From Candidatus Eiseniibacteriota bacterium (lineage in GTDB: Bacteria > Eisenbacteria > RBG-16-71-46), in the NCBI GenBank assembly GCA_031364845.1, contig JANLWX010000228.1:1-44548 (forward strand): a DNA stretch of 44,548 bases, given 5' to 3'. Each line of letters begins with the position of its first letter. Positions within the stretch are counted from its first letter, which is position 1. A program made the position numbers and the translations under genes. Below the pieces are notes generated by a model. The model did not search any database, was not told where the DNA came from, and was given only the letters and a program-made list of their open reading frames with translations. This document shows positions 2,251 to 30,989 of the stretch, one piece after another.

Positions 2251-2397
2251 GATGGCTCCTTGCGTTTCATAATCGGTTTGAGCACCACCAATCGCAACGC
2301 CCACAGAAACAGCACCGCCGCCAGTGCGCTGAAACTATCCGGCGTGCACATGAACTTGAAGGGGTTTTCTTCTCTCGTGCCGCGTCCGGAGTTTCCC

Positions 2398-2916
2398 ATG
2401 TGGCGACTGATCTCGTTCCTCGCGGTTCTGACGTTCGCGTGCGCTCCACGTCCGACTCCGGCCCCACCTCCCGCTGCCGCAATCACGACCGACCTCACCC
2501 GCTACGTCCTTCGGCCCGCTGTTTACGGACACGTCGCATCCATCGTCGCGCGCTTCACGGCTCCGGCGGATACGGCGGTCTTCATCCTCCATTGCAACGG
2601 AGCGATCTCGTGGGGTCTCCAGCGGCTCGTCGACGGTCGGTGGGAGAATGCGTGGGTCGCGACCACCAACGGTTGCCTCTCGGCGCCGATCCAAGTGACG
2701 GGCGGCGGCACGTACGCGGACACGCTGGAGCTGATCTCGCGGACGGACATGCCTCCGAACCCGGGAACCGTGCAGGCTGAAGTTCCACCCGGCACCTACC
2801 GTGTCGTCTGGTTCGGTGTGCTGACCGCGTTCGATCTCGACGCGCGACCGTTCGGCGACGAACTCGGGCTCGAACATCGCGTCTCGGCACCGATCGTGAT
2901 CGAGCGGGCGCCATGA
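2398..2916 (+). CDS. Hypothetical lipoprotein, small beta-rich (Ig-like) domain
   Basis: GGAG SD at 2388-2391 and ATG at 2398. Signal peptide MWRLISFLAVLTFA-C with lipobox-like Cys, Pro-rich linker, two further Cys and a PPGTYRVV strand; 172 aa. Confidence 0.7.
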   Translation: MWRLISFLAVLTFACAPRPTPAPPPAAAITTDLTRYVLRPAVYGHVASIVARFTAPADTAVFILHCNGAISWGLQRLVDGRWENAWVATTNGCLSAPIQVTGGGTYADTLELISRTDMPPNPGTVQAEVPPGTYRVVWFGVLTAFDLDARPFGDELGLEHRVSAPIVIERAP

Positions 2917-3126: not shown

Positions 3127-3933
3127 TCACTCCGCCAGGAACGCGACTTTCGCCAGCCCCAGCTCGATCTCGTCCCCGTGCCGCAGCCTTACGCCGCGCA
3201 CTGCGCCGCGCGCCACCGCAATCGAACGCCCGTCGCGTGCGATGCGCGTGCCGTGAGCACTACCGTCATCGAACACGCGGAACCCGTCGCCGGCGAAGTA
3301 CTCGATATGCGCATGCGCGCGCGACACGGTCGCGTTCACGGGATCCTCGCGGTCGAGGAACGCGACGTGATTGCGGCGCAGCTTGTGAGCGCCACGGCCT
3401 TCGACGCTTTCCATGCGTCCGAGATTGATGCGCTCGAGCCGCAGCTCGTGAATGCGGCGCCTGGCACCACCGGCCAGCACCATGATGCGAACGGTCGGAA
3501 CCGCGGTTGCGGCGCGCTCGGTCGCGGCGGCAGCATCGGTGCGCTTCTCTCCCGCCGGCCTGCGAAACGCGATCGCATACGGGCTCACGTCTTCGCTCGT
3601 GCGCGGACGCACGCGCACGCGCACGCCGAGCTCCTCCGGCGTTTCGCAGCGCACCTGACGCAGGCGTTCGCGCACGCGCTCTTCGAATGCGCCGGCGCCG
3701 AACACCGCGCGCGCGGCTTCGAGCGTCGCGGGCTCGACGCGCAATTCCACGCGGATCAGCTCGTACGGAAACACGCGCCCGCGCCCGCCCGAGGGCACGA
3801 CGCGCTGCTCGATTTCGTCCAGCATCGGCGGGATCCACTCGAACGGTTCCTCGGGCGCGACTTTGCGGCGCGTGAGCCGGTCGAGTTTTCCTTCGAGCGC
3901 CTTCTCCAGTTTGACCAGCTTGTCGAGCTTCAT
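3127..3933 (-). CDS. FhaA-like protein: N-terminal DUF3662/FhaA_N-like domain plus C-terminal FHA domain
   Basis: ATG 3933 after GAGGG. N-terminal ...GGRGRVFPYELIRVEL...; FHA motifs NLGR, VSRAH, GSAHGT, GDEIELG; 268 aa. Last gene of the operon. Confidence 0.85.
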   Translation of the reverse strand: MKLDKLVKLEKALEGKLDRLTRRKVAPEEPFEWIPPMLDEIEQRVVPSGGRGRVFPYELIRVELRVEPATLEAARAVFGAGAFEERVRERLRQVRCETPEELGVRVRVRPRTSEDVSPYAIAFRRPAGEKRTDAAAATERAATAVPTVRIMVLAGGARRRIHELRLERINLGRMESVEGRGAHKLRRNHVAFLDREDPVNATVSRAHAHIEYFAGDGFRVFDDGSAHGTRIARDGRSIAVARGAVRGVRLRHGDEIELGLAKVAFLAE

Positions 3934-3944
3934 GTCGCCCTCGT

Positions 3945-6900
3945 TCAGATAATGCCGAGCTTGCGGGCCTCGGCGACGATGCGTCCGGCGAGTTCGGCGG
4001 CGCGTCCGCCGCCGTAACCACCGTTTTCGATCAGAACGGAAAAGGCGATCCGTCGCCCGTGTGCATTCGATCCGTCGTTCGTCGCAGCCGATGCGACCGG
4101 TCCGTAGGGCGCGTAGCCGATGAACCACGCGTGCGAAGCGCCGTTCGCGATCTCGGCAGTGCCGGTCTTGCCGGCGATCGCGGGCACGACCGTCGCGAGA
4201 CGGCGCGCGGTGCCATGCTCGACGACGCGGCGCATCATGCGCGCGACGGCCGCAGCGGTGCCGCTGCTGATCACGACCGTGTCGGCCGCGGCACTCGCGG
4301 GCTTCAGCACCACGTGCGGCGAGCGCAGGGTTCCTCCGGCGGCGATCGTGGCGGCGACGCGCGCCATCGTGAGCGGCGTGGCGACCACCTGCGCCTGGCC
4401 GTAGGCGCCTTCGATCGCGTTCGCGCAGCGGCCGGCATCGCTCTTGGGATCGCCCATCGAGATGTCGAAGCTACGTCCCATGTCGCGCAGCGCAGGCCAG
4501 CCGAGTGCTCGTCCGAGTTGCGCGTAGTACGCATTGCACGAGACCGCCATCGCCTCCTCCATGCCGATCGAGCCGTGCGCGTCGTGTCCGGCGTCGTCGC
4601 GAACGAGCCGGCCTTCGATCACACTGCCCGCGCGGCCTCCCGGCAACGGGCGGCAGCTGAAGCGAGTGCCCGCGAGTTCGGCATCGGACGTGAGCGCGGC
4701 GGCTGCAGTCACGATCTTGAACGTCGAACCGGGCGGATAGAGTCCGAATCTCGCGCGATCCATCAACGGGCTCGCGGCGGCATCGGTGGCGTTCTCGGCG
4801 ACGTCGCTGTCGCGCAACAGGCCTTCGGGTGCGGGCTGGCTCACCGAAGCGAGCACCTCGCCGTTCTGCGCATCGAGCACCACGATCGATCCGCGATCGA
4901 GTCCCGCCGCCGCGAGTTGTTCGCGCAGCAGCGAAGTGAGGCGCGACTGCAGGCGCAGGTCGATCGTGAGCGTGAGGTCGCGATCGCGATTGACGAGCGC
5001 GCGCACTTTCGGATGCCGTGGCTGATGGCGATGCCGCCACAGCGGGACCAACTCGCTCAGGTCGCGGCGCACGACGCGCCGGGGTTCGTGGGTGCGCGGG
5101 TCCGTGATCGTCACCGCACGCGCGTGGTCGTCGTAGCCGCTCATGTAGGCATCGTGGCTGCGCTCGACATACGCGGTGTTGGAGGCGCCCCAGTTCTTGC
5201 GGCTCACGACATCGCCGAGCAAATGGAACGTGACGTTGCCGAACGGATAGTGCCGCTCATCCGTCGCGAGCGAGGTGCGATCGATGTCGACGCCGAGCTT
5301 CTTCAGCGCATCGCGGCGATCGGTGAGATCCTTCCAGCGGCTGGTGGCGAGCAGCACGCCGTTACGATCGAACACGTTCCCGCGCGGCACGGCGGCCGCG
5401 GCGAGCCGCAGCCGGGGGTTGTACTGGTAGCGATGCTGGCCGTCGCCCTGCAGTGCCAGGCTCCCGCGCGCGAACGTCGCGTCGGCGCGCACGACCTGGA
5501 TCCACGCGAGCTTCAACACGATCGCGACTCCGAATACGCCGATCACAGCGAGCAGGATGCCGCGCGGAGGATCGAACGCGAGGCCGAGCGCGGTCGGCGG
5601 CGGTGCTGCCGGAGCCGAGGCGCTGCGGAGTCCGGCGAGTGCCAGCCTCGCGGGCGCCTTCGTCTCACCGAGTGCGGCCGCGCCGCTCGCGGCGAGCGAC
5701 CACAGGATGCCGAGCGTGGCGAAGTGCAGGATCTGGGCGGAGCGCCCGAAACTCAGGAACGGCGTGACGACGCCCGACAAAGGCACGATGCCCGCAACCC
5801 CGCCCGCGATCAAGAGCGTTTGAAGTGCCAAACCCAGCGTGAGCCCGAGTCCCAGATACATCGTGTACGCCTCGGGAGCGCGGCGTGCGATGCGGAACCC
5901 GCGCGCGATCAGCAGCGCGAACAACGCGAAGCACGCGAGCAATCCGATGAAGCCCAGCTCCTCGCCCACCGATGCGAGGATGAGATCGGTGTGCGCGGCC
6001 GGGACGACCGACGGCGCTCCCAGCCCGAGCCCGGTGCCCGAGAGACCGCCCGAAGCGAACGCCCACAGTCCGTGTGCGATCTGATCGCCGCGCGAGAGTC
6101 CGTTTTCCCACGGATCGAGCCACATCGCGGTGCGCAGGCTCACGGTGCGCGGGAAGCCCAGGACGTAGCTGACGACGAACGCGCCGAACACCACGGCGAG
6201 GCCGCCGAGAGCGAGACCGACCTCGCGGCGGGTCACCGCATAGAGCGAGAGGAACAGTCCGAGCAGCAGCAGCGCGGGCCCGAGATCACGCTGGACGAAG
6301 AAGAACAGCACGCTCAGCGCGACGCCGATCGCGACCGGCAGCACGTGATGGAGCCGCGGCAGTTTGAGCAGCTTGAGATACCACGCGTCGCCGAGCGGAC
6401 GTTCGTCGAGCTCGCGTAGCAGCGCCCATTTGCTCGAGAAGTAGCCGGCAAGGAACAGCACGAGCAGCAGCCGGATCAATTCCATCGGCTGGGTGCCGAA
6501 CAAGTTGACCTTGGCATCGCTGCCCGAAGGACCGCGGCCGAGCACGACCAGCGCCAGCGACAGTGCCAGCGCTCCGAGCAACGGCACGAACGCGAGCCGG
6601 CGCAGCACGGTGCGCTCGTACGAAGGAATCGCGCACAGCACCATTGCCACGCCGCCAAACAGCACGCCCTCGGCGAAGCGCGTGAACAGCAGTTGATCGC
6701 GCAGTGGCTCGCGCAGGCTCACGAGCATCGCGAAACCGATTCCGCTGAGCGCGAGGGCGACCGGCACCAGCCAGCGGTCGCCGGATTTGCCGGTGGCGTG
6801 GAGCCCGAAGTGCATGAAGCCGAATGCGGCGACGAAGATCAGGACGTGGAGCATGAAGGAGCCGGCGAAGCGGCCGCCATCGCGCACGACCAGACTCGGC

Positions 6901-7472
6901 TTGAGCGCCTGGAACTGCTCGGAAGTGAAGAGTCCGATCATCACGGGTGCTGCGGACGGTTTTGCGGCGGCGTCCTTTGACGCGGCGGGGGCCTTCGCAT
7001 CTCCGCGCGCGGCGGCAGTGGCGAGCGCCGTTGCACCTCGTGCGCTGATACCCGGCAGATCCGCGCGCCCAGCGACGGCGTCCGCGCGCACGCGCATCGT
7101 GGCGAGCGCACCGACGTTTTCGAGCGGCCGCTCGGCGCCGCCCGCCGGCAGGCGCTTGAACATCTCGCTTGCGACGAACGCGCGCTCCGGCGCATCGGGC
7201 AGCACACCGCGCAGAATTGACTCCAGCGGGGCCGCGCTGCGCACCGAGTTCAGGTTGACCATCTCGCCACGCGCCAGCGCGAGACGCACGTTGCCGAAAC
7301 CTGCGCTGCGCGTCGGATACACCATCGCCAGCGCGAGCAGCGCGACACCAAGCGCGAGCCCGAGCGGCACCAGATGATCGCGCTCGAGCGCCGAGCGCCA
7401 TGAGCGGCCGCGGCGGCGCTGTGCGGCCGTGCTCCGCGTGGTTCTGCCGCGCGCCTCGAGCACTGCGCTCAT
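3945..7472 (-). CDS. SEDS glycosyltransferase (RodA/FtsW family) fused to a class B penicillin-binding transpeptidase
   Basis: SEDS motifs QPMELIR, QRDLGPA, PAAHTDLILASVGEELG and VPLSGVVTPFLSFG across many TM helices. Then a bPBP anchor (LKLAWIQVV), the RGNVFDRNG pedestal, and transpeptidase motifs STFK (SxxK), SCN (SxN), KTG. ATG 7472; 1175 aa. Confidence 0.93.
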   Translation of the reverse strand: MSAVLEARGRTTRSTAAQRRRGRSWRSALERDHLVPLGLALGVALLALAMVYPTRSAGFGNVRLALARGEMVNLNSVRSAAPLESILRGVLPDAPERAFVASEMFKRLPAGGAERPLENVGALATMRVRADAVAGRADLPGISARGATALATAAARGDAKAPAASKDAAAKPSAAPVMIGLFTSEQFQALKPSLVVRDGGRFAGSFMLHVLIFVAAFGFMHFGLHATGKSGDRWLVPVALALSGIGFAMLVSLREPLRDQLLFTRFAEGVLFGGVAMVLCAIPSYERTVLRRLAFVPLLGALALSLALVVLGRGPSGSDAKVNLFGTQPMELIRLLLVLFLAGYFSSKWALLRELDERPLGDAWYLKLLKLPRLHHVLPVAIGVALSVLFFFVQRDLGPALLLLGLFLSLYAVTRREVGLALGGLAVVFGAFVVSYVLGFPRTVSLRTAMWLDPWENGLSRGDQIAHGLWAFASGGLSGTGLGLGAPSVVPAAHTDLILASVGEELGFIGLLACFALFALLIARGFRIARRAPEAYTMYLGLGLTLGLALQTLLIAGGVAGIVPLSGVVTPFLSFGRSAQILHFATLGILWSLAASGAAALGETKAPARLALAGLRSASAPAAPPPTALGLAFDPPRGILLAVIGVFGVAIVLKLAWIQVVRADATFARGSLALQGDGQHRYQYNPRLRLAAAAVPRGNVFDRNGVLLATSRWKDLTDRRDALKKLGVDIDRTSLATDERHYPFGNVTFHLLGDVVSRKNWGASNTAYVERSHDAYMSGYDDHARAVTITDPRTHEPRRVVRRDLSELVPLWRHRHQPRHPKVRALVNRDRDLTLTIDLRLQSRLTSLLREQLAAAGLDRGSIVVLDAQNGEVLASVSQPAPEGLLRDSDVAENATDAAASPLMDRARFGLYPPGSTFKIVTAAAALTSDAELAGTRFSCRPLPGGRAGSVIEGRLVRDDAGHDAHGSIGMEEAMAVSCNAYYAQLGRALGWPALRDMGRSFDISMGDPKSDAGRCANAIEGAYGQAQVVATPLTMARVAATIAAGGTLRSPHVVLKPASAAADTVVISSGTAAAVARMMRRVVEHGTARRLATVVPAIAGKTGTAEIANGASHAWFIGYAPYGPVASAATNDGSNAHGRRIAFSVLIENGGYGGGRAAELAGRIVAEARKLGII

Positions 7473-7476
7473 CGGA

Positions 7477-9528
7477 TCACTGACTGCCGCCGAACAGCGG
7501 CGCGAGGATGCCGAGTCCCATCTTGCGGAGCCGCGCTTCGCGCACATCGCTCTCGCGCGTCTCGACCTTCTGCACGAGCTCCTGGACCTTGCGGATGTAG
7601 CGGCTCACTTCCCCGTACGCCGGAATGGTTTCGTAGCGCTCGAGCGCCTGACGGCAATCCTCGCGCACACGCTCGAGATACTTGTCCTCCTGCGGAATGC
7701 CGCGGTAGTCGGCCGCGCGCGACCAGGCCTTCTCGGCGCGCAAACGGTAACCGTCACCGAGCAGCGCGACGTCGCGGTTGCCGAACGCGTATCCGTTCTC
7801 CTCGGCGATGCCCAGCGCATCCCGCGCGGCTTCGGGATCTTCGAGGCCGTAGACATACGTGCGCGCCAGGCCGAGTTGCGGATCGCTCCAGCGCGGGCGC
7901 AGGCTCGCAGCTTCTTCGAATGCGCTGGTGGCCTCGTTGAAGTAGCGCAGCGCATCCGCCGGACGGCGGCCCTTCGCGGCCTGCGCGTTGATGCGAGCGA
8001 GATGTCCGCGGCAGTAGACGAGTCGCGCGCGGATCGCGCGATCGCGCGGCGCGATCGACGCCGCGTGTTCGAGCAGGCCGATCGCCTTGATCCATCCGTT
8101 CTCGCGAATCACCGGCGTGTCGGAACGGTAGTCCGCGATCAGCTCGTCGGCCGAGGACACGAACCAGTTCTTCACGTCGCCCGACAGCCCGAGTGTGCCG
8201 ACGCGCAGGAAGCTGCGTGATCCGAGCTGGCGATAGCGTTTCCAGACCGCATCCGAATCCCCGCGCGGCAGTCCGGGCAGTGCGGCCTTCAACTCGTTCG
8301 AAGCGCTCATCACCTGTGCTTCGTTGGACATCAGAAAGACCGCGGCGAACACCGCCAGCAGTCGCCAGCGAAATCGAAACCTCCGTCGCGGGACGGAGAC
8401 GTCGGGAGTGGCGGCCGGCGCAGCGGCAACCGGAGCCGCCGAAGTCGCGACCGGCGCAGGCAGTGTGATGTCGGCGGCGCCATTTCCGGCGCCGGCCCCC
8501 AGCGTGCGCCGAGTGTCGTCGAGATCCGCTGCCGCTCCGCTATCCGAAGACACGGTCCGCCGCGTTGCGTCCGATTCCGAAACCGTGCGCCGCGTCCCGT
8601 CGAGATCGTGAACGCCGTTCGAGGACGGCGCGGTACGGCGTGTCGCTTCGTAGCCCGCGGCGGAACCGGCGTCGGCCGACGCCAGCATCGCGCGTCCCTC
8701 GAGGAACGCGGCAAGATCGTCGCGCATCGCCGCGGCACTTGCGTAGCGCCGTTCGAGCGCGGGCGCGAGCGCCTTGCGCAACGCCGCGGCCAGCGACTCC
8801 GGGCAGTTCTCGGGCATCGCGTCGGGACGCGCGCGCGAGCGGATGAACTCTTCGAGCCGGCGCGTGCTCTCGCCGCGGAACGGCTGCTGGCCCGTGAGCG
8901 TTTCGTAGAGCACCACCGAAACCGACCACAGGTCGGAATGCGCATCGACATTGCCGGTTTCGATGCGCTCGGGCGACGAGTAGGGCAGGCTGCCGAATTC
9001 GTTGCGCGTGAGCGGCCGCGTGAGCGACAGCGCCTTGGCGATCCCGAAGTCGAGCACCTTCACCGCGCCCCCCGGCTCGATCCGCACGTTCTTGGGCTTG
9101 AGATCGCCGTGCACGATCCCGAGATGGGTGCGCCCCTCGACGGTGCGCGTGAAGCGTTGCGCGGTGCACAGCAGTCCGCACAGCTCGATCGCGATCCGCA
9201 CCGCCTCGCGCGGCTCGAGCGGCCCGCGGCGGATGCGGTCGGACAGGTCCTCGCCCGCGACGTACTCCATCGCGATGTACATGTCGTTCTCGACGCTCTC
9301 TTCGATCTCGAACACCTTCGGAACCCGCGGGTCGATCTCCGACAGACGCATCTGGATCAGCGCGCCTTCGCGCTCGGCCTCGCGCACGCCGGGGTCGGTC
9401 TTCGGAATCTTGAGCGCCACCGTGCGGCCATTGCGGCTGTCGACCGCCTTGAGCACGTCCGCCATGCCGCCGCTGCCGAGGCGCGAGAGAACCTCGAACG
9501 GTCCGACGCTGTGATAGCGGACGCTCAT
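7477..9528 (-). CDS. Hanks-type Ser/Thr protein kinase (non-RD), membrane-anchored, TPR-like C-terminal domain
   Basis: LGSGGMADV Gly-loop, VALK, HGDLKPKN, DFG, YSSPE, SDLWS. Then a linker with TRRT repeats, a short hydrophobic segment RWRLLAVFAAVFLM and helical Ala-rich repeats. ATG 9528 after AGGAG; 683 aa. Confidence 0.93.
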   Translation of the reverse strand: MSVRYHSVGPFEVLSRLGSGGMADVLKAVDSRNGRTVALKIPKTDPGVREAEREGALIQMRLSEIDPRVPKVFEIEESVENDMYIAMEYVAGEDLSDRIRRGPLEPREAVRIAIELCGLLCTAQRFTRTVEGRTHLGIVHGDLKPKNVRIEPGGAVKVLDFGIAKALSLTRPLTRNEFGSLPYSSPERIETGNVDAHSDLWSVSVVLYETLTGQQPFRGESTRRLEEFIRSRARPDAMPENCPESLAAALRKALAPALERRYASAAAMRDDLAAFLEGRAMLASADAGSAAGYEATRRTAPSSNGVHDLDGTRRTVSESDATRRTVSSDSGAAADLDDTRRTLGAGAGNGAADITLPAPVATSAAPVAAAPAATPDVSVPRRRFRFRWRLLAVFAAVFLMSNEAQVMSASNELKAALPGLPRGDSDAVWKRYRQLGSRSFLRVGTLGLSGDVKNWFVSSADELIADYRSDTPVIRENGWIKAIGLLEHAASIAPRDRAIRARLVYCRGHLARINAQAAKGRRPADALRYFNEATSAFEEAASLRPRWSDPQLGLARTYVYGLEDPEAARDALGIAEENGYAFGNRDVALLGDGYRLRAEKAWSRAADYRGIPQEDKYLERVREDCRQALERYETIPAYGEVSRYIRKVQELVQKVETRESDVREARLRKMGLGILAPLFGGSQ

Positions 9529-9587
9529 CGGCGCTCCTGCGCGCGGGCGACGCCCGTACTCCACGAGCGTGTGCGGGTCGCGGTCAT
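9525..9587 (-). CDS. Putative 20-aa micro-ORF MTATRTRSWSTGVARAQERR bridging the phosphatase and kinase genes
   Basis: Its ATG overlaps the PP2C stop (ATGA 9587-9584) and has GGGAG 6 nt upstream. Its TGA overlaps the kinase ATG (ATGA 9528-9525). Confidence 0.35.
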   Translation of the reverse strand: MTATRTRSWSTGVARAQERR

Positions 9588-11311
9588 CGTCGGCTCCCGC
9601 GCGCCGAAGTTCCGAGCGCGCCCGAACCATTCGCGCGGCCCCACGCTTCGAAGATGTTGTCCTCGGCCAGCGCGGCCCGGATCGAGGGCGGAGCGCCCCG
9701 CACGCCTTCGGCTCCATTGCCTGCGATGACGTTGCCGACCAGCACCGGCGTGGCGTTGCCTTCCAGTTCGACGCCGGCCCGCGACCGGCGTGCGTTACGG
9801 CCGTTGTCGAGGATCAGGTTGTGTCCGAGGCGCGGCGACGCAGGCCGCGAGATCGTCACGCCGGCACCCGGGTTCTTCTGAATCAGGCTCGCGTTCAGGG
9901 ACGCATCTCCGCGACCCTGAAAGACCACGCCCGCGCTGCGCGCTCCGGAGATCTCCACGTCTTCGATCGCGACTCGCGCGTCGCGCACTCGAATACCGAT
10001 GTCGAGCGGACTGCTGTCGCCGGCCGCGATCTTGAATCCCACGATGCGTCCCGCCGAGAGGCCCTCCGCCACGATCGCCACCAGCGGTGCCGAGCCTTCA
10101 CCGCGCGGGATCAGCACGGCCTGGCGGGGAACGCGGCTCATCAGCGTCACACCGTCTTCGAGCCGCACCTGTTCGCGATAGGTGCCGGGCGCGACCGAGA
10201 CCGTGTCGCCGGAGCGCGCGGCCGAGAGCGCGTCGCCGATCGCTCCGAACTCGAGTCCCGGCCCCACCAGCAGCGCGCGCGGCGCGCGCGACGTCTGAAA
10301 CGCGGGACCGAGCGGGAGTCCGGTGCTGGCGGGATTGCGATCGATCAGCGTGAAGCCCCAGAACATCGCAACGCCCGCGAGCGCGCCGAACGCGAACACG
10401 TAGCCGGGTCGCGTGAACCACGGACGTTCGACGGCGTCGGCGTCTGCATTGACCGCGCGAGCGCGCGGTGCGGATGACGACTCGCGCCGCGCTCCGAGCG
10501 CCGTCGCGAAACGGTCGCCCGCCGCCAGCGCCACCGTGACGTTGTCCTTGCCCCCCGCCGCGTTCGCCGCCTCGATCAGCCTTTCGACCGCTTTAGGCTC
10601 GTCGCCCGCATTCTCGCGCACGATGCGCGCGATCGTCCCGCTCGAAACCAGATCCGTGAGCCCGTCGCTGCAAAGAAGAATCGCGCCCTCGGGATCGAAC
10701 GGGAAACGGCTCACCTCGACGAAGTCCTCATCGAGTGGCGTGTGCTCTTCAGCGCCCACCGAGCGGTAGACTTCGTTGCGGCGCGGGTGGCGCATCGCAT
10801 CGGCCTCGCTCAGCTCGCCCTGGTCCTCGCGCATGCCGACCGGCGAATGATCGCGTGTGACTTTCACGATGCCGTCCGCGCCGAGGCGGTAGAGACGCGA
10901 GTCGCCGACGTGCCCCACCGTGACCATGCCGTCCTCGATCACCGCGAGTGTGAGGACGCATCCCATGCCTTCGAGATCTGGGTTCAGGCTCGCGAGGCGC
11001 ACGATTTCGTTGTTGGCGACCGCGATCGCTTCGCGCACGCGCTCTTCGACGCGACCGGTCTGGCGCTCGAGGCGCGAGCGCAGAAACGTGAGCGCGGTCT
11101 CGGCCGCCGTCTCGCCCGCCGCCTGGCCGCCGATGCCATCGACCACGATCAGGATGCCGCGCTCGGGATCGACGTGAAGACGGTCTTCGTTGTGGTCGCG
11201 GATCATCCCGCGATGGGTGGCACCCGCGCAGTGGATCGTGGCGCGTCGCGAACCCGGTCGCGCGGCGATCAGCGTCGCCCCGCTGTCGTGCAGCCGGTCA
11301 GGAAGGGTCAT
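9584..11311 (-). CDS. PP2C/PPM Ser/Thr phosphatase (PstP/Stp1-like) with TM helix and extracytoplasmic right-handed beta-helix domain
   Basis: PPM motifs RDHNED, VVDGIGG, HVGDSR, LCSDGLTD, GGKDNVT. TM YVFAFGALAGVAMFWGFTLI, then GDTVSVAPGTYREQV and Asn-ladder turns typical of pectin-lyase-like beta-helices; 575 aa. Confidence 0.92.
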   Translation of the reverse strand: MTLPDRLHDSGATLIAARPGSRRATIHCAGATHRGMIRDHNEDRLHVDPERGILIVVDGIGGQAAGETAAETALTFLRSRLERQTGRVEERVREAIAVANNEIVRLASLNPDLEGMGCVLTLAVIEDGMVTVGHVGDSRLYRLGADGIVKVTRDHSPVGMREDQGELSEADAMRHPRRNEVYRSVGAEEHTPLDEDFVEVSRFPFDPEGAILLCSDGLTDLVSSGTIARIVRENAGDEPKAVERLIEAANAAGGKDNVTVALAAGDRFATALGARRESSSAPRARAVNADADAVERPWFTRPGYVFAFGALAGVAMFWGFTLIDRNPASTGLPLGPAFQTSRAPRALLVGPGLEFGAIGDALSAARSGDTVSVAPGTYREQVRLEDGVTLMSRVPRQAVLIPRGEGSAPLVAIVAEGLSAGRIVGFKIAAGDSSPLDIGIRVRDARVAIEDVEISGARSAGVVFQGRGDASLNASLIQKNPGAGVTISRPASPRLGHNLILDNGRNARRSRAGVELEGNATPVLVGNVIAGNGAEGVRGAPPSIRAALAEDNIFEAWGRANGSGALGTSARGSRR

Positions 11312-11396
11312 GTCGGAGCGACTTCCAGCAGATCCACCCGACCGCGGCGACGAGTGCCAGGAGGAACAGCCAGCGGAGCGAGAAGAGCAGGCTCAC
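11298..11396 (-). CDS. 32-aa single-TM membrane peptide MSLLFSLRWLFLLALVAAVGWICWKSLRHDPS (FhaB N-terminal anchor-like)
   Basis: GTG 11396 to TGA 11300-11298, below the ORF-track cutoff. It has a clean hydrophobic helix followed by KSLRHD, overlaps the PP2C start by 14 nt, and lies between the fhaA-like and pstP-like genes. Confidence 0.6.
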   Translation of the reverse strand: MSLLFSLRWLFLLALVAAVGWICWKSLRHDPS

Positions 11397-11449
11397 GCGA
11401 GGACCACATGCAGGCGATGGAAACCGCTCAAGCGGAGTCGTCCGTTCAT
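11393..11449 (-). CDS. Putative 18-aa micro-ORF MNGRLRLSGFHRLHVVLA
   Basis: Its ATG overlaps the FhaA-like stop (ATGA 11449-11446). Its TGA overlaps the GTG of the 32-aa peptide (GTGA 11396-11393). Confidence 0.25.
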   Translation of the reverse strand: MNGRLRLSGFHRLHVVLA

Positions 11450-12393
11450 ACCGGGATCTCGGCGCGGAAGCTGATGAAGACCGCGCCGGCCAATCCGATC
11501 TCGGCCTCGGACTTCAACGGCACCTCGAGGTTCCTGTCGACCTTCTCACCGTCGCGCACTTCGATGCTTGATGGGATCGCCGCTCCGTCGACCGTGGTGC
11601 CGAGCGTGCTGAGATCCTTGATGTAGAAACGGCGCTCGGGTTCGTCGTAGCGCAGCCGCAGATGATCGCGCGATACGTCGGGCACGGTCTTGAGTTTTAG
11701 ATCGACCCAGTAGCCGGGGCCGCCTCTTCCGACCACGACCTGCGGCTTCTCCATGCGAAACAGGTGATCGCCGTTCTCGTCGCGGTAGCGGAGTGTGGCG
11801 AGCGCGCCCAAGACCGGTTCGGCGGCGGGCGGCGGCGGAGCCTCGGCGTGCGGGGCACTCGAGTCGGGCATCGAAGGCACGGCCACAGGCCCGGTGCGCG
11901 CCGGGATCGCGGCGGGAGCCGGTACGGCCTGTGAGGCAGCGGGCGCTTCGTGGCTTTCGATGCGATCGCCCCGCCGCGTCGTGACGATGCGCCGCGTGCG
12001 GCTGCCGCTCAGGCTCTCGGACTCGGGCGTGACGAGCGTCGAGTCGACCAGGATGTCGCCAGGCGCCAGTTCGTCGTTGGGATCGGAGATCAGCCGGATC
12101 TCCCACGCCGAGCCGGCCCGTTCGTGCGGCAATCGCGGGCGCCGCAGCGCCTCGCGGACTTTGGCTTCGATCTGGCTCGCGCGGTTCAGCTTCTCGAGTT
12201 CCTCGTCGAGCGCGCGGCGCGCCTGGTCGGCGATCACTGCGGCGAGGCTCTCCAAGCGCTGGAAGTCGGCCGGATGCAGGTAGACGTCGTACGTGGCGGG
12301 CACGATCGTGGAATAGCGCAGTTCTTCACCCTGGCTGCGCATGTTCTCGACCACCTGGGCGATGATGTCGCGACCGCGAACTTTGTCTTCCAT
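11446..12393 (-). CDS. FhaA-like protein: DUF3662/FhaA_N domain, Pro/Ala linker, C-terminal FHA domain
   Basis: IVPATYDVYLHPADFQRL matches the FhaA N-domain pattern. FHA motifs VVGR, VSRDH, DLSTLGTTVDG. Start ATG 12393 preferred (315 aa); ATG 12468 is possible. Confidence 0.88.
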   Translation of the reverse strand: MEDKVRGRDIIAQVVENMRSQGEELRYSTIVPATYDVYLHPADFQRLESLAAVIADQARRALDEELEKLNRASQIEAKVREALRRPRLPHERAGSAWEIRLISDPNDELAPGDILVDSTLVTPESESLSGSRTRRIVTTRRGDRIESHEAPAASQAVPAPAAIPARTGPVAVPSMPDSSAPHAEAPPPPAAEPVLGALATLRYRDENGDHLFRMEKPQVVVGRGGPGYWVDLKLKTVPDVSRDHLRLRYDEPERRFYIKDLSTLGTTVDGAAIPSSIEVRDGEKVDRNLEVPLKSEAEIGLAGAVFISFRAEIPV

Positions 12394-12502
12394 GGCAGGC
12401 TGGACCCTGACCGCGCAGCGTGAAGTCGACCGACAGGCTGGAGTAGGCGAAGTACCCTGGGCGTCCATGATAAGCCCCGGGCCCGGCGTTTCCAGTCGAC
12501 TT

Positions 12503-12520
12503 CTGACGAGCGCTCGTCAG
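12503..12520. promoter_or_regulatory. Perfect 18-bp palindrome CTGACGAGCGCTCGTCAG; candidate operator
   Basis: Exact dyad in the divergent intergenic region upstream of the FHA/kinase operon. Confidence 0.4.
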
Positions 12521-12640
12521 TGGATACGGCGAACTCCGGGCACAAGTTTCCAACCGATGGCCCTTCATCGGGCTACGAGCAGCGAGCAGGCGCAAAGAAG
12601 ACATGTCCCTGACATTCAGAGAGGCCGATCGGTCGTCCGG

Positions 12641-12677
12641 CCGCGTGGCCACGCGGGATTCGTGCGTCTACAATCCC
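12641..12677 (+). promoter_or_regulatory. Putative sigma70 promoter TGGCCA-N17-TACAAT with a 16-bp perfect palindrome centred on -35
   Basis: -35 at 12646-12651 and -10 at 12669-12674. Dyad CCGCGTGGCCACGCGG at 12641-12656; about 60 nt upstream of ATG 12737. Confidence 0.45.
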
Positions 12678-12736
12678 GGCCGCAGACTTCGGCGCAGCCT
12701 CCCCTCCTTTCCCCCTCCAGCGAAAACGAGACAACG

Positions 12737-13879
12737 ATGTCCAAACCCGCCAAGAAACCACGAGTCCTGATTCTCGGTGCCGGCTTCGGCGGGCTCGAAC
12801 TGAGCAGCGCGCTGTCGGAGGAGATGGGCGACGACCTCGCGATCACGCTCATCGACAAAGCGGAGTGCTTCGTCTTCGGGTTCTCGAAGCTGGAGGTGAT
12901 GTTCGGCCACAAGACCGCGGCCGCGGTGAGCATTCCGTACGCGGGCATCATCAAGCCGGGGGTCACCTTCCGACGCGAGACCATCACGGCGATCGATCCT
13001 GCCGCCCGCCGCGTCACCACCGACGCCGCCACCCACGAGGCGGACATCCTGGTGATCGCGCTCGGTGCCGCGTACGACACCACACCCGGCGTGACCATCG
13101 GAGAGAACGAGTTCTACTCGGTCGAGGGCGCGGTGCGCCTGGGCGAAGTTCTGCCGGCCTTCACGAGCGGCCATGCCGTGGTCGGCGTGTGCGGCGCTCC
13201 CTACAAGTGCCCGCCCGCACCGAGCGAGTGCGCGCTGATGCTGCACCAGCACCTGCTGGAGCGCGGCGTCCGGGACGACTGCCGCATCTCGATCGTGATT
13301 CCGTTCCCGAGCCCGGTGCCGCCATCTCCTGAAACTTCGAGCGCCCTGATCGCGGCGTTCGCCGAACGGAACATCGAATACATTCCCGACCGCCGGGTCA
13401 CGTCGGTGGACACGTCGAACAGGATCGTGACGCTCGACGACGGACGCCGGCTTCCGTGCGACCTGTTCCTCGGCGTTCCGAAACATCGCGCGCCGGACGT
13501 GGTCATCGCGGCCGGGATGACCGAGAACGGATGGGTGACGGTCGAGCCGCGCACGCTTCAGACATCGTTACCTGGCGTCTACGCGCTTGGCGACGTGTCC
13601 AATACGGGCGCTCCGAAAGCCGGTGTGTTCGCCGAGGGCGCCGCGCGTACCGTCGCGGACAATCTGATCGCCCACTTTCGAGGACTGGAGCAGACCGGGC
13701 TCTATGCGGGGGCGGGATCGTGCTACATCGAGTTCGGAGCCAATCGGATCGGCCGCGTCGACGTGGACTTCTTCACAGGGCCCAAGCCGACCGGAACCTT
13801 CCACGAACCGAGCGTGGCACAGCGCGTCCACAAGCAGGAGTTTGCCGACACGCGGCGCGCCCGCTGGTTCGGCCATTAG
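12737..13879 (+). CDS. FAD-dependent oxidoreductase, sulfide:quinone oxidoreductase / flavocytochrome c sulfide dehydrogenase-like
   Basis: ILGAGFGG FAD motif, YKCPPAPSE (first redox Cys), VYALGD, PKAGVFAE, CYIEFG (second Cys). Start moved to ATG 12737; 380 aa. Confidence 0.85.
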   Translation: MSKPAKKPRVLILGAGFGGLELSSALSEEMGDDLAITLIDKAECFVFGFSKLEVMFGHKTAAAVSIPYAGIIKPGVTFRRETITAIDPAARRVTTDAATHEADILVIALGAAYDTTPGVTIGENEFYSVEGAVRLGEVLPAFTSGHAVVGVCGAPYKCPPAPSECALMLHQHLLERGVRDDCRISIVIPFPSPVPPSPETSSALIAAFAERNIEYIPDRRVTSVDTSNRIVTLDDGRRLPCDLFLGVPKHRAPDVVIAAGMTENGWVTVEPRTLQTSLPGVYALGDVSNTGAPKAGVFAEGAARTVADNLIAHFRGLEQTGLYAGAGSCYIEFGANRIGRVDVDFFTGPKPTGTFHEPSVAQRVHKQEFADTRRARWFGH

Positions 13880-14003: not shown

Positions 14004-15458
14004 CTAGAGTTTGATAAACCGGCGCGACAGTTCTTGAGTTCCTGCTTTGAGGCGCGCGAAGTAGACACCTGCGGGAACGACCTCTCCTGTTTCGTTTCGC
14101 CCGTCCCATGAGACGTCGTGGCGTCCGGCAGGCCGATCGCGGTCCGTGAGCATGCGTACCTGCCGCCCTGTGACATCGACGATCTCCACGCGTACGCGGG
14201 CCGGGCGCTGCAACATCATGCTCAGCGTCGTCGATTCGCGGCTGGGATTCGGCACGGGCGCGAGAAGCTGGACGCCCAGATCGCCCGGGCCTTCGATGAC
14301 GTCGACGGTGTCGGTGCTCTCGAACGCGCCGAGGTCGGGCGCCTCTCCGTCGTAGTCGGCGGCGTTACGCGACCACACGATCTGCCCGTGGTGCTCGAAC
14401 GACGCAGTGCCCGCATCGATCGCCGGGCTTCCATCCGAGAGTCTGCGGTCCGCCGACAGCAGAGGATCGCCTGAAAACGTCGTCGCCGCGTCAATGTTCG
14501 ATTGGGAATCGTCGGTGCCGTTCGCGAAGAACAGGTTGTACGCCGCGATCGAGCCGGCACCCACGTCTTTCACCGCGATATTCGTCGTGCGGACGAAGAT
14601 GTTGTTCACCGCGACGAGACTGTCGCCCCCGGTGATCCCGTGGTCGTTGCCGTCGAACGTGTTGTGATAGACGCCCACGCGCTCCTTGAGATTCGCGCCC
14701 TGATAGTTCTCGACCGTGTTCTGACAACACATGATCCCGATGCCGGCCATCGCGTTGTTCGCGATGAGATTGCCTTCGATATGGACCGTCCGCGGCGTGG
14801 GCACGTCGTAGCTGATGAGCTGGATGCCGTCTTCTTCGTTGCCTGTGATCGTGTTGTTCCGGATCACGACCGAGAGCAGCGGGCCGGAGTACGGCTGGAA
14901 GCGCATCTCGATCCCGTCGTCGCTGTTGTTCCGGATCGTGTTGTTCTCGATGATCGTCGTCACCGCATGATCGATGTCGATCCCATCGTCGGCGTTGCCC
15001 TCGAAGATGCAGCCTCGCACCAGCCCACCGGAGCCGGCTTCGTGGTCGATCCCGTCGCCCGTCTCCGTCACCCGATTGTCGAGGAAGTGGAACTTCCCGT
15101 TCGCGCTCACGCCATCATCGGCATTGCGCAGCGTGAGTCCGGAGATGACGGGGATCGCGGCCGAAGCCCCGATCCGGATGACCCGCAGGGCCCCGCCGCC
15201 ATCGATGACCGTCTGGTCGATGAAACTGCGATCGGCCGTCGTATGAAAGTGTGACGCAACGGTGATGGACTTGCCGGTGAGGACCAGACTCTCGAAGTAG
15301 GTCCCCGGGGCGATCAGCACGAGATCGCCGTCGGCGGAGGCATCGATCGCCGATTGGATGGTGGAGTAGTCGGAGGGGACTTCGCGCGTGAGCGCGAAGG
15401 CCGCCGGGGCCGATGACAGGATCAGGGCAAGACTGGCGCTGCAAACGTACGTCTTCAC
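14004..15458 (-). CDS. Secreted right-handed beta-helix protein with C-terminal FlgD-Ig/T9SS-like sorting domain
   Basis: GTG after AAGGAG and a signal peptide ending AFA. VPSDYSTIQSAIDA..GD..LIAPGTY start, repeated N.DDGI coils, SPAIDAG...APDLGAFE motif, and CTD PNP...WDGRNETG..VPAGVYF; 484 aa. Confidence 0.88.
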   Translation of the reverse strand: MKTYVCSASLALILSSAPAAFALTREVPSDYSTIQSAIDASADGDLVLIAPGTYFESLVLTGKSITVASHFHTTADRSFIDQTVIDGGGALRVIRIGASAAIPVISGLTLRNADDGVSANGKFHFLDNRVTETGDGIDHEAGSGGLVRGCIFEGNADDGIDIDHAVTTIIENNTIRNNSDDGIEMRFQPYSGPLLSVVIRNNTITGNEEDGIQLISYDVPTPRTVHIEGNLIANNAMAGIGIMCCQNTVENYQGANLKERVGVYHNTFDGNDHGITGGDSLVAVNNIFVRTTNIAVKDVGAGSIAAYNLFFANGTDDSQSNIDAATTFSGDPLLSADRRLSDGSPAIDAGTASFEHHGQIVWSRNAADYDGEAPDLGAFESTDTVDVIEGPGDLGVQLLAPVPNPSRESTTLSMMLQRPARVRVEIVDVTGRQVRMLTDRDRPAGRHDVSWDGRNETGEVVPAGVYFARLKAGTQELSRRFIKL

Positions 15459-15530
15459 GGTCGTGATGCTCCTTCGGTGGCTGCTCGCATGACCGTCCCT
15501 GCACGGCGTCTCTTCTTAATGAGTAGCATG

Positions 15531-15559
15531 AGTTTACGCCGCCGCTCGTGGCGGATCAA
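15531..15559 (-). promoter_or_regulatory. Putative sigma70 promoter TTGATC-N17-TAAACT for the beta-helix gene
   Basis: Minus strand -35 at 15559-15554 and -10 at 15536-15531, about 70 nt upstream of GTG 15458. Confidence 0.5.
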
Positions 15560-15744
15560 CGTTCGAGTTGGTGTATCTGTCGGCGCTTCCTGGAAGCAGT
15601 AAGGAGGTTAGCCGCGGGCCACGCGCACGGGCGAAGGACTCGAGATCGACCTTTCCTATGGATTCCGCCTTCATCGGCTCCTATGATGTCGCATCGCTTC
15701 GGTCTGTTCGAAGCCGAGTGGAATCCCTATCCACTGAGGCAATC

Positions 15745-18108: not shown

Positions 18109-18121
18109 CCGGGGAAGTGCG

Positions 18122-18859
18122 ATGAAGCATTCCACTCGACTTGCCGCCCGCGTCCTCGTGACGGTTCTCCTGATGTTGCCGAGCACCGCGGGTGCGGATC
18201 TCGACTTCCTCCCCTTGCTCCCCGTCGTCTCGGCTCCCGCCGGAAGCAGCGTCGTGGTCGAAGCGCTGATCCGGAATTCGGGAAACCAGGTCGTGTACCT
18301 GGGTTCTGTGTCGGCGGACCTGATCGAGGGCTTTGCGGGCTCCGATGCGTTCGACGACTACAACGTCTCGGGTCCCGATTCGCTGTTGCCGGGTGAGTGC
18401 TGGGAAGGACCGGTCATCCGGCTCACACTGGCACCGGATGTGACGCCGGCGGACATGAAACAAGTCACGCTCCACTTCGCAGGCGGGCTTCACCGCTACG
18501 ACGGCCAGGCTCTGGGTGAACTCTCCTTCGCCTTGAACGACTCCACCACGCTGCTGTCGGTCCCCGGGCTCGATCCCGCCGAGGGAACCCGGTTCGTGAG
18601 CGTCTCACCCAATCCTGCACGCGGCGCTTCATTGATCGCGTTCGAACTCGCAGCGGAGCAGGCGGTCGACGTCCGCGTATACGATGTGCGCGGTGCCGCG
18701 ATCCGTCTGCTGGCTCACGGCCGCCGAAGCGCAGGCCTGCAGTCGGTGACGTGGGATGGCCGCGACGACGCCGGAGCCCGGTCGGCGCCCGGGATCTACT
18801 TCGTGCGGCTCACCGTTGCCGATGGCATTCGCAAGACCAAGGTCGTGCGCGTCCACTGA
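18122..18859 (+). CDS. Secreted protein: small beta-sandwich domain plus FlgD-Ig/T9SS-like C-terminal domain
   Basis: Signal peptide ending STAGA and CTD SPNPARG...YDVRG...WDGRDDAG..APGIYF. ATG 18122 lies 13 nt after the previous stop; 245 aa. Confidence 0.82.
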   Translation: MKHSTRLAARVLVTVLLMLPSTAGADLDFLPLLPVVSAPAGSSVVVEALIRNSGNQVVYLGSVSADLIEGFAGSDAFDDYNVSGPDSLLPGECWEGPVIRLTLAPDVTPADMKQVTLHFAGGLHRYDGQALGELSFALNDSTTLLSVPGLDPAEGTRFVSVSPNPARGASLIAFELAAEQAVDVRVYDVRGAAIRLLAHGRRSAGLQSVTWDGRDDAGARSAPGIYFVRLTVADGIRKTKVVRVH

Positions 18860-18979
18860 GGTCTGGCTGCGGTCGACGCCTTCACACGGGCAGACTCATC
18901 GAGGTTCCCGAGGCGACGCAGGCGGGCAAGGCATGTGCGGTGCTCGCGGCTTCGGCATAGTCGATGACGGAACACGATG

Positions 18980-19009
18980 CATCGGGCGCCCGGACTGCGG
19001 CGCCCGATG
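18980..19009. terminator. Stem-loop between convergent genes
   Basis: Perfect 11-bp stem CATCGGGCGCC / GGCGCCCGATG with an 8-nt loop; no strong U-tract. Confidence 0.45.
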
Positions 19010-19042
19010 GATCATGGAACTTCAGCGGGAGCGGCGTGCTTC

Positions 19043-23494: not shown

Positions 23495-23517
23495 CGGTTC
23501 TCCGTCCATCATGGTCC

Positions 23518-25239: not shown

Positions 25240-25497
25240 GGTTCCGCCCGATGGAAATCGACCTGGTGCATTCACCGAAGCAGAACGATTCTGCGATGGG
25301 TGATCCGTTCGCCCGCGGCACGCACGCGCGCGCGAGGACCGGGGGTGTTCACAAGGGGCCTCCATGGCGGACGGGAGGCATGCGCCTCCCGTGGTCCGAT
25401 GGTTGATCGTGATCCGGCCTCAATGGTACGCCCGGTTCACCCTGAAGGCATCACAAATTCCGGACAGTAGCACCCCAAGTGCAGGGAACGCACCGTC

Positions 25498-30771: not shown

Positions 30772-30989
30772 GGGGAGGCTTCCTGAGGGTGGGAGGCGGT
30801 TCTGTGGACAAGGGCACCCTCGCGGGGTCCGCAATTCTAGCCTTCCCGCCTCGACGCCCCAACGCTTTTCTCGCCTCGATAGGGCCCGTGCATTTCGTTC
30901 GCGAAGGAACTCCAGACGTGCGCGAAGATCGGGACAGCACCTGGATGTGAAGGATCCCGGGGACCCGACGAGGCCGTGATTCGAAGCGC

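Follow-up and report, generated by a model that had tools for sequence, protein, structure and literature searches.

How pairs of SEDS polymerases and class B penicillin-binding proteins (bPBPs) are activated is an open question, and the best-known case of their control by phosphorylation is found in actinobacteria, which are hard to handle. The actinobacterial operon fhaA-fhaB-pstP-rodA-pbpA-pknA-pknB has been described (PMC11898655; PMC6554272), and mycobacterial FhaA is reported to bind phosphorylated MviN and CwlM (PMC11898655). This locus is essential and is entangled with many other kinase targets. The present analysis concerns a gene cassette on the minus strand of contig JANLWX010000228.1 (assembly GCA_031364845.1) from a Candidatus Eiseniibacteriota bacterium; the whole contig of 44,548 nt was analyzed and is referred to here as the window. 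The cassette spans positions 3127-12393 and encodes two FHA proteins, a 32-aa membrane peptide, a PP2C phosphatase, a Hanks-type Ser/Thr kinase and a SEDS::class-B PBP fusion. Taken as a whole, it is rather probably a self-contained accessory peptidoglycan synthase cassette that shares ancestry with the actinobacterial locus, occurs patchily in diderm soil bacteria and is switched by phosphorylation in the manner proposed below. The identity of the system is held with high confidence.

Natural SEDS-PBP fusions have been mentioned before, for instance in Rhodococcus RHA1 (PMC10449877). Additionally, a 2025 survey in microLife reported 117 InterPro proteins with glycosyltransferase (GTase), pedestal and transpeptidase (TPase) domains and named the natural SEDS-bPBP chimeras "bifunctional class B synthases" (PMC12516126). 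Many RodA-PbpA fusions are listed there for the Coriobacteriia, Acidimicrobiia and Anaerolineae (PMC12516126, Table S10), and the fusion of Senegalimassilia faecalis has kinase and phosphatase genes alongside. The Gram-negative Pedobacter ginsengisoli encodes a 1341-aa GTase-TPase protein, described as "rare," which is flanked by Ser/Thr kinase and phosphatase genes and whose role the survey called unknown (PMC12516126). As far as the survey's main text goes, FHA is not mentioned. Engineered RodA-PBP2 and FtsW-PBP3 fusions are active and have been used for biochemistry and cryo-electron microscopy (PMC10449877; PMC6207328).

The fusion in the window, with GTase and TPase domains in a single chain, is a chimera in the sense of the survey. 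A preliminary description of the window knew of no functional study of similar architectures. A literature search agrees on that point, but the survey, in the part concerned with P. ginsengisoli, already describes a Gram-negative chimera flanked by kinase and phosphatase genes (PMC12516126). The search gave nothing specific on the cassette outside the Actinobacteria. Nothing was found on its occurrence in Acidobacteriota or Eisenbacteria, on the FHA pair, on the micro-peptide or on the N-terminal motif, although supplementary tables may list more members.

Organization of the Locus

Based on the open reading frames (ORFs) and Pfam matches, the six genes are closely packed and form one tight operon (Table 1). 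Intergenic distances range from a 14-nt overlap, where the end of the peptide gene runs into the start of the PP2C gene, up to 55 nt, and the FHA2 gene begins 11 nt downstream of the fusion gene. The preliminary description had listed these six genes in the same order and had seen no mre or dcw genes around them. All six were recovered at the positions given there, and Pfam annotation of the window genes likewise yielded no mre or dcw genes. Because a gene for a secreted protein converges on the 3' end of the operon and a gene for an SQR-like oxidoreductase (Pfam Pyr_redox_2) diverges from its 5' end, 3127-12393 can be taken as the true limits. The intergenic region on the 5' side is probably the promoter region of the operon and holds a single sigma-70-like match (12494-12467, minus strand), which is a match to consensus only. 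A terminator scan 3' of FHA2 found none, and promoter and terminator scanning otherwise gave only consensus-level matches.

Table 1. Features of the cassette and of the fusion protein, in window coordinates.
Feature	Position	Strand	Description	Evidence
FHA1	11446-12393	-	FhaA-like cytoplasmic FHA reader, first gene	Pfam FHA, 36.9 bits
Membrane peptide, 32 aa	11298-11396	-	GTG start, single helix, hydrophobic	Read from sequence
PP2C Ser/Thr phosphatase	9584-11311	-	Eraser	Pfam PP2C, 53.6 bits; Beta_helix, 30.8 bits
Hanks-type Ser/Thr kinase	7477-9528 (ORF open up to 9717)	-	Writer	Pkinase, 113.6 bits
SEDS::class-B PBP fusion, 1175 aa	3945-7472	-	Effector	FTSW_RODA_SPOVE, 170.2 bits; Transpeptidase, 144.7 bits
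N-terminal tail motif, residues 9-19 (GRTTRSTAAQR)	7416-7448	-	Cytoplasmic; Thr12 is the candidate phospho-acceptor and FHA docking site	
N-terminal module, residues 34-220	6813-7373	-	Membrane helix A, periplasmic domain of ~150 aa, membrane helix B	
SEDS glycosyltransferase domain, residues 232-625	5598-6779	-		PF01098, 170.2 bits
Class B PBP part, residues 626-1175	3948-5597	-	Linker, anchor 638-656, pedestal region, transpeptidase ~861-1159	PF00905, 144.7 bits
FHA2	3127-3933	-	Second cytoplasmic reader	Pfam FHA, 27.2 bits
Divergent intergenic region between FHA1 and the SQR-like oxidoreductase gene	12394-12730			Sigma-70-like match; Pyr_redox_2 neighbor

The Fused Synthase

The effector of the cassette is a single polypeptide, as had been noticed at first sight, and is identical to entry P0001 of the homologue set. 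Hydropathy predicts about 13 membrane helices, of which 2 belong to the N-terminal module, 10 to the SEDS domain and 1 to the PBP anchor. Both Pfam matches lie above their cut-offs (26.4 bits for PF01098, 22.1 bits for PF00905). The SEDS domain carries its catalytic Asp in periplasmic loop 4: Asp496 and the preceding Pro of the fusion align with D262 and P257 of Escherichia coli RodA, and mutation of either RodA residue abolishes polymerase activity (PMC10449877). The transpeptidase domain possesses the SxxK, SxN and KTG motifs. In an alignment of 13 family members, HTD 494-496, S916/K919, S978-N980 and K1102-G1104 are invariant. Judged from these residues, both catalytic centers of the fusion are intact.

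The PBP part is complete and is joined to the cytoplasmic C-terminus of the SEDS domain by a linker of ~40 residues. Between its anchor and the transpeptidase domain lie ~200 aa with an RGxxxDRNG motif. The standard pedestal model PBP_dimer reaches 18.3 bits in this protein against a cut-off of 24.4, and PBP_dimer_2 was not reported by Pfam.

The N-terminal ~230 residues are specific to the fusion family and comprise a cytoplasmic tail, helix A, a periplasmic domain and helix B. Pfam assigned no family to the first 234 aa even at E 5, and Foldseek returned nothing at E 0.001 or better for the module. An AlphaFold2 (AF2) model of the module has a pLDDT of 86.3. When its residues 65-197 were compared by VIA-align, the matches were ComEA (8dss_B, Z 7.9, rmsd 1.7, 64 aa), the ComEA-related 2duy_A (Z 7.4, 63/65 aa) and the helix-hairpin-helix parts of Tex and GspK (Z 7.3-7.9 overall). 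A ComEA-like (HhH)2 fold is assigned to the module only tentatively.

The cytoplasmic tail is conserved in most of the family. Among 118 homologues, 88% have Thr in the column of position 12 and 11% have a gap there, and the consensus at the extreme N-terminus is M-A-V-T-R-S-x-A-A-x-R. The motif is absent from the fusions without an adjacent kinase at loci L139, L140, L166 and L167.

The Host and Its Housekeeping Synthases

The assembly to which the window belongs as a whole contig measures 4.6 Mb and is rated 97% complete and 3.66% contaminated. LpxC and several Omp85/BamA proteins are encoded in it, which identifies the host as a diderm rather than an actinobacterium; the preliminary description was right to suspect as much. 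Six relatives of the host's FtsZ (78-82% identity) have an organism name, and in four of them it is Candidatus Eisenbacteria. The many window proteins with FlgD_ig or Por_Secre_tail domains fit a bacterium of the FCB group.

The genome contains three SEDS genes. The first is ftsW in a dcw cluster, murD-ftsW-murG-murC...ftsA-ftsZ, on contig C169. The second is rodA, which follows PBP2 on contig C212, the continuation of the mreB-mreC-PBP2 end of contig C14. The housekeeping PBP2 gene itself is split at the assembly break, with the pedestal half ending C14 and the transpeptidase half starting C212. RodA (393 bits) and FtsW (352.6 bits) of the genome pass the NCBIfam equivalog cut-offs (336.7 for TIGR02210 and 337.5 for TIGR02614), whereas the fusion fails both, with 133.1 bits for the RodA model and 168.7 bits for the FtsW model. 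Because FtsW and RodA are encoded elsewhere and pass these equivalogs, and the fusion does not, the fusion is a third, accessory synthase. This agrees with the original expectation of an accessory machine apart from the mre and dcw clusters, and with RodA on C212 the fusion is not the only elongation SEDS protein of the genome. Three Acidobacteriota carriers of the cassette also have exactly three SEDS genes apiece.

Conservation and Distribution

A homologue search in which 8000 candidates were scored returned more than 2000 homologues of the fusion at E ≤0.001, and the best 120 all contain both domains. Fourteen loci had enough flanking sequence to be compared. Three of them (Bryobacteraceae, Acidobacteriota and Thermoanaerobaculia) came from a pattern scan for generic PBP motifs, in which 3 of 80 loci were family members, and 11 came from a genome search. 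The order FHA1-PP2C-kinase-fusion-FHA2 is found in 10 of the 14; the other four include one locus without an FHA1 match, one that is rearranged and has a different kinase, and two with a divergent fusion alone. FHA2 is present in 12 of the 14 and in three of five additional loci from the Bacteroidota side. When the ORFs of 15 loci were compared all-versus-all, the five cassette protein genes alone recurred, and the genes that flank the cassette in the window are not beside it even in a genome of the same genus. The micro-peptide and the five proteins are inherited as a set. The loci thus bear out the conserved neighborhood as well as the similar architectures in Acidobacteria mentioned in the preliminary description.

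The distribution of the fusion is patchy. It was detected in 8 of 201 genomes of the window's own phylum (E 1e-50), in 9 of 301 Acidobacteriota genomes and in 7 of 401 genomes on the Bacteroidota side (the phylum of a Bacteroidia metagenome-assembled genome, MAG), where the members measure 1170-1387 aa; these counts are lower bounds because two or three candidates were scored per genome. The Bacteroidota-side loci are reduced. Two of them (L166 and L167) read FHA1-PP2C-fusion-FHA2, L168 reads FHA1-fusion-FHA2, L165 has FHA1 and the fusion, and L169 has the fusion alone. Over all 19 loci, FHA1 occurs in 15, FHA2 in 15, PP2C in 14 and an in-cassette kinase in 12.

Several loci depart from the common arrangement in other ways. 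At L139 (genome G254) and L140 (G293), the fusion is of the divergent branch and has neither FHA nor PP2C nor kinase genes at its side, and the fusion of L139 adjoins aminotransferase and glycosyltransferase genes. At L166 (G854:C1, ~8783-12901), no stop codon lies between the PP2C and fusion genes, and the open frame amounts to 1387 aa; here phosphatase and synthase may form one chain, or their genes may simply abut. An 8.8-Mb Acidobacteriota genome (G482:C1) has two cassettes, L133 and L134, at ~1.39 Mb and 8.38 Mb. The L133 copy lacks an FHA1 match, and the PP2C of the L134 copy lacks an ectodomain match.

Relation to the Actinobacterial Locus

With a profile built on the SEDS domain of the fusion, the PP2C-linked SEDS proteins of Actinomycetota reach 165-202 bits, and RodA and FtsW of the window's genome reach ~100 bits. 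In a tree of 65 SEDS domains (IQ-TREE quick search), a branch with 100% support in the SH-like approximate likelihood ratio test (SH-aLRT) divides 22 canonical FtsW/RodA rows, the host's own included, from 43 other rows. The 43-row side, clade B, consists of the fusion family (17 rows, 100%), the RodA proteins of actinobacterial PP2C operons (19 rows, 97%) and Firmicutes proteins (7 rows, 95%), so that this quick-search tree places the fusion in the clade of the operon-linked RodA with 100% SH-aLRT. A constraint that unites the fusion family with canonical RodA lowers the log-likelihood by 55 units, and the approximately unbiased (AU) test rejects it (p = 0.005). In two of five annotated Firmicutes loci, a small FHA gene lies immediately upstream of the SEDS-PBP genes, and the PBPs of these loci possess a PbpA-type dimerization domain.

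The PBP half of the fusion tells the same story. Its best PDB match is Penicillin-binding protein A (3un7 and 3lo7, 82 bits), with MrdA at ~68 bits. The SEDS clade, the PbpA match and a weak FhaA_N match in all 11 FHA1 orthologues speak for a common descent of the cassette and fhaA-...-pstP-rodA-pbpA-pknB and against a reinvention. The cassette thus looks homologous to the actinobacterial locus rather than convergent, and the earlier suggestion that the locus had been "rebuilt" in a diderm does not hold up against the placement of the SEDS half and the PbpA match of the PBP half. The clade of the window is nested among other fusions, and the few of these with an organism label are mostly from Acidobacteriota. 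This nesting fits a transfer between phyla, in either direction.

The SEDS tree also bears on other bacteria. Streptomyces, Terrabacter and Solirubrobacterales (L146, L147 and L148) have an extra SEDS protein beside the operon RodA, and it groups with the canonical RodA of diderms; the "RodA" of the pknB operon and the MreB-type RodA are therefore different branches. In Lachnospiraceae, a clade B SEDS protein and a PbpA-type PBP come after ruvB, zapA and a U32 peptidase gene. A Roseburia sp. MAG (L044, 4398-7130) encodes the pair as one fused protein of 911 aa, and Coprococcus catus (L063) has separate genes for them.

The Regulatory Proteins

In FHA1, residues 1-100 form an N-domain, which a Pro/Ala-rich linker connects to a C-terminal FHA domain retaining GR and SRxH. 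Hydropathy predicts no membrane helix. The FhaA_N (DUF3662) match of the N-domain reaches 22.5-23 bits, below the Pfam cut-off of 25; all 11 FHA1 orthologues match this model at E <0.1, and one exceeds the cut-off. Among the orthologues, G222, R223, S241 and H244 are invariant, and R242 is present in at least 90% of rows. FHA2 has an N-domain of its own and an FHA domain with an insertion. Its orthologues retain GR and R-x-H (G172, R173, R205 and H207 are invariant), and the phosphate-binding Ser of SRxH is replaced by Gly in 3 of 12 rows. The preliminary description regarded FHA2 as a duplicate of FhaA. However, in a profile-profile comparison, FHA1 and FHA2 align over their FHA domains only (probability 96.8) and their N-domains do not align, so FHA2 has not proved to be FhaA-like. 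Look-alikes of FHA2 in the protein atlas are unnamed FHA proteins, for the most part from Acidobacteriota.

The gene for the 32-aa peptide has a GC content at third codon positions (GC3) of 0.85, similar to that of the adjoining genes. Ten of 13 loci, among them that of the window, have a hydrophobic ORF of ~30 aa in the space that separates FHA1 from PP2C. An alternative small frame, which begins with ATG and ends in ATGA at the PP2C start, was considered and rejected, the hydrophobic frame being the one conserved elsewhere. The peptide contains no FHA domain and is not an FhaB, which is a small membrane-anchored FHA protein. It probably serves one of the cassette's three membrane proteins as a membrane subunit.

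The phosphatase possesses a cytoplasmic PP2C domain, one predicted membrane helix (residues 305-323) and a periplasmic right-handed beta-helix (~356-540). As a membrane-anchored PP2C protein, it is of the PstP type. The metal-binding motifs RxxNED, DGxGG, DG and DN can be read in the translation, and the NCBIfam Stp1 model gives 194.5 bits, below its cut-off of 230. The ectodomain is of the Beta_helix/NosD/DUF1565 type, with Beta_helix scores of 30.8 to 33.1 bits, and is covered in 10 of 12 phosphatase orthologues.

An alignment of 13 kinases indicates that the kinase likely starts at 9528, making the protein shorter than the longest ORF (7477-9717). The Lys, Glu, catalytic loop, DFG and SPE elements are all present in the translation. 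The catalytic loop, HGDLKPKN, is non-RD, which sets this kinase outside the RD subclass; among the 12 kinases that cover the loop, nine have HGD, two have HAD and one, at the rearranged locus L136, has HRD. The linker between the catalytic domain and the membrane helix contains four TRRT repeats, and five further orthologues have one to three each. After the single membrane helix follows an all-alpha, TPR-like periplasmic domain of ~250 aa. Its AF2 model is an all-alpha solenoid with a pLDDT of 91.5, and TPR proteins account for all of its top ten Foldseek matches in the PDB and for most of those listed, at modest scores (E 2e-4 or weaker, TM 0.2-0.36). The Pfam TPR_19 score of 18.1 bits is below the cut-off of 25. 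The helical ectodomain can be aligned in 11 of 12 kinases. The NCBIfam model PknB_PASTA, whose cut-off is 450 bits, gives 195 bits and covers just the kinase domain, and the protein has no PASTA domain. Overall, the beta-helix of the phosphatase and the non-RD, TPR-like character of the kinase correspond to what had been read from the translations at the outset.

Proposed Regulation and Alternative Explanations

The Thr-Arg-Ser tail of the synthase and the TRRT repeats of the kinase suggest control through phospho-Thr and FHA domains. The membrane kinase would sense a periplasmic signal through its TPR-like domain and would phosphorylate the Thr residues of its own TRRT repeats and Thr12 in the N-terminal Thr-Arg-Ser of the synthase. 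Once phosphorylated, these threonines would be bound by the two FHA proteins, which would thereby switch the synthase on or off or determine its location. The phosphatase, likewise in the membrane, would reset the switch, and its beta-helix ectodomain may read a glycan. Both ectodomains, together with the periplasmic module of the synthase, may relay information from the wall or the medium. This scheme was derived from the known logic of Hanks kinases, PP2C phosphatases and FHA domains and from the mycobacterial system (PMC11898655). In its particulars, which are phosphorylation at TRRT and Thr12, FHA docking and reset by PP2C, it is a plausible model that falls somewhat short of even chances.

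A number of points weigh against the reading of the cassette given at the outset. The fusions of L166 and L167 lack the N-tail motif, yet these loci keep both FHA genes, so FHA docking cannot depend on the N-tail motif alone. Three FHA2 orthologues have Gly at the position of the phosphate-binding Ser, and the FhaA_N match of FHA1 sits below Pfam's cut-off. The TPR likeness of the kinase ectodomain is weak at TM values of 0.2-0.36, and the ComEA scores of the N-terminal module (Z 7.4-7.9) are in a range where helical models often match by chance. The tree was built by a quick search, and the group submitted to the AU test was named after the tree had been seen. Prevalence was estimated from two or three scored candidates per genome.

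The alternative that survives best concerns the role of the cassette and is compatible with the proposed mechanism. The fusion may serve a special developmental or stress situation, for example in resting cells, in filaments or after envelope damage, or may act as a back-up that sustains wall synthesis while soil beta-lactams inhibit the housekeeping enzymes. The preliminary description supposed an inducible machine for building or repairing the wall, perhaps triggered by envelope damage or cell contact. A third synthase beside an intact FtsW and RodA-PBP2, the patchy distribution with variable flanks, and the predicted periplasmic sensor domains on both writer and eraser would all suit such a role. 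In contrast, no sporulation or resistance genes recur beside the cassette in the 15 loci, and NCBIfam models for PBP2a/MecA match the fusion with 22-43 bits, far under their cut-offs of 750-1525. On this evidence, the specialized role is worth keeping in view but is rather doubtful.

It is also conceivable, though unlikely, that the signaling genes act mainly on other targets, with the FHA proteins controlling precursor supply or flipping and the synthase being co-expressed without being a phospho-target. The phosphorylated MviN and CwlM bound by mycobacterial FhaA provide a precedent (PMC11898655), and members without the N-tail motif still have FHA genes adjoining the fusion. Direct docking gains no support from the single binding prediction made: when the 36-aa N-tail was paired with the FHA domains of both readers, the score was 0.00 against a mark of 0.32, a result that is evidence neither way. 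However, FHA genes stay by the fusion even where no kinase is adjacent (L165, with FHA1 only, and L166, L167 and L168), Thr12 is near-invariant in the kinase-linked clade, and neither a MurJ nor a CwlM gene is among those that recur across the 15 loci.

Still less probable is a convergent re-assembly, in which unrelated FHA, PP2C, kinase and synthase genes came to mimic the actinobacterial locus. The gene order differs in that the kinase precedes the synthase, the kinase is single, non-RD and without PASTA domains, the second gene encodes a 32-aa peptide and not FhaB, and the FhaA_N match is under the cut-off. Common descent accounts better for the grouping of the SEDS half with the actinobacterial operon RodA (100% SH-aLRT; alternative rejected, p = 0.005), for PbpA as the best match of the PBP half and for the FhaA_N match common to all 11 FHA1 orthologues; moreover, genes one to three of the cassette run in the same order as fhaA, a small membrane gene and pstP. 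A role of the fusion as the organism's main elongation or division synthase is very improbable, since nothing more than its intact active sites speaks for this, whereas RodA and FtsW pass their equivalogs in mre and dcw contexts, which already contradicts it, and 193 of the 201 genomes of the phylum lack the fusion at E 1e-50.

Flanking Genes

The flanking genes of the window were considered as parts of the system and rejected, since none recurs across the 15 loci compared. The converging gene at the 3' end (2260-2916, plus strand) is small and begins like a signal peptide or lipoprotein; Pfam finds no family in it. The minus-strand ORFs that overlap it have a poorer codon-position GC and are probably not genes. 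Beyond the 5' end, a run of very large secreted proteins of up to 1849 aa is encoded at 14004-31047. These proteins contain beta-helix, Ig, SBBP beta-propeller, DUF7948, laminin-G and SdrD domains, and each terminates in an FlgD_ig or Por_Secre_tail sorting domain. The region resembles an island of cargo genes for a type IX-like secretion system. Further along, positions 32465-43831 encode an ROK regulator, a GH16 protein, a family-5 solute-binding protein, two permeases, an ATPase, a 1069-aa GH2-like protein and a GH1 protein, and are a probable cluster for the utilization of beta-glucans or oligosaccharides.

Comparison with Known Systems

In conclusion, the cassette is a diderm, fused and mobile version of the RodA-PbpA module controlled by FHA proteins, kinase and phosphatase. 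Its family is large and environmental, and one apparent example is already in print in the survey of chimeras (PMC12516126). New beyond that source are the FHA pair, the micro-peptide, the ectodomains, the N-tail motif, the placement in clade B and the more than 2000 metagenomic homologues. A bolder and distinctly speculative interpretation would see here a third ancient SEDS branch beside RodA and FtsW, with FHA control as its hallmark. It would have left the monoderms as a mobile and self-contained unit comprising the writer, the eraser, both readers, the effector and the micro-subunit and would serve as an add-on synthase in diderm soil bacteria of at least three phyla, switched by an N-terminal phospho-threonine and steered by two periplasmic sensors and the ComEA-like module. 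If the regulation proposed in the preceding sections is right, Ser/Thr control of wall synthesis would extend beyond the Gram-positive bacteria, and the "rare" chimeras reported in 2025 (PMC12516126) would be members of a large environmental family. The cassette looks dispensable, holds all parts in ~9 kb, has its enzyme pair pre-fused and offers one conserved candidate phospho-site; under the same condition, it would allow direct tests of phosphorylation, FHA docking and polymerase activity in a natural system of small size. Pre-fused enzyme pairs have already aided in vitro work on engineered fusions.

The engineered RodA-PBP2 and FtsW-PBP3 proteins share the topology of the cassette fusion, in which the SEDS C-terminus leads into the N-terminal anchor of the bPBP. 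They differ in being artificial, in using canonical RodA or FtsW and in having no signaling partners. The RodA-PbpA fusions of Coriobacteriia, Acidimicrobiia and Anaerolineae and the Roseburia fusion L044 likewise combine a clade B SEDS domain with a PbpA-type PBP, and some have kinase and phosphatase flanks. Unlike the cassette fusion, they measure 860-930 aa and are without the two-helix module at the N-terminus, a PBPA_dimer domain can be detected in them, and their hosts are monoderms or Chloroflexota. The Roseburia gene follows zapA and U32 peptidase genes and is without FHA, PP2C and kinase genes. The chimera of P. ginsengisoli is more similar: polymerase and transpeptidase form one chain in which the standard model finds no pedestal, the fusion is flanked by kinase and phosphatase, and the Gram-negative host keeps FtsW/FtsI and RodA/MrdA. 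This likeness is drawn from the published description, and the protein may belong to the same family.

Compared with the actinobacterial locus, the cassette has the same beginning, with an FhaA-type reader first, then a gene for a small membrane protein and then a membrane PP2C. Both also encode a SEDS protein of the same clade beside a PbpA-like transpeptidase, as well as a membrane Hanks kinase. In contrast, rodA and pbpA are separate in actinobacteria, while the cassette encodes a single chain with an extra N-terminal module. Two PASTA kinases follow the actinobacterial synthase, whereas one non-RD kinase with a TPR-like ectodomain precedes the synthase of the cassette. The phosphatase ectodomain of the cassette is a beta-helix, unlike that of the actinobacterial locus, and its second gene encodes a 32-aa peptide without an FHA domain in place of FhaB. 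The cassette also closes with a second FHA protein whose N-domain is unrelated. Finally, its host is a diderm that also holds MreB, RodA-PBP2 and FtsW, and in such bacteria the cassette is accessory and patchy, neither universal nor essential-looking as is the actinobacterial locus.

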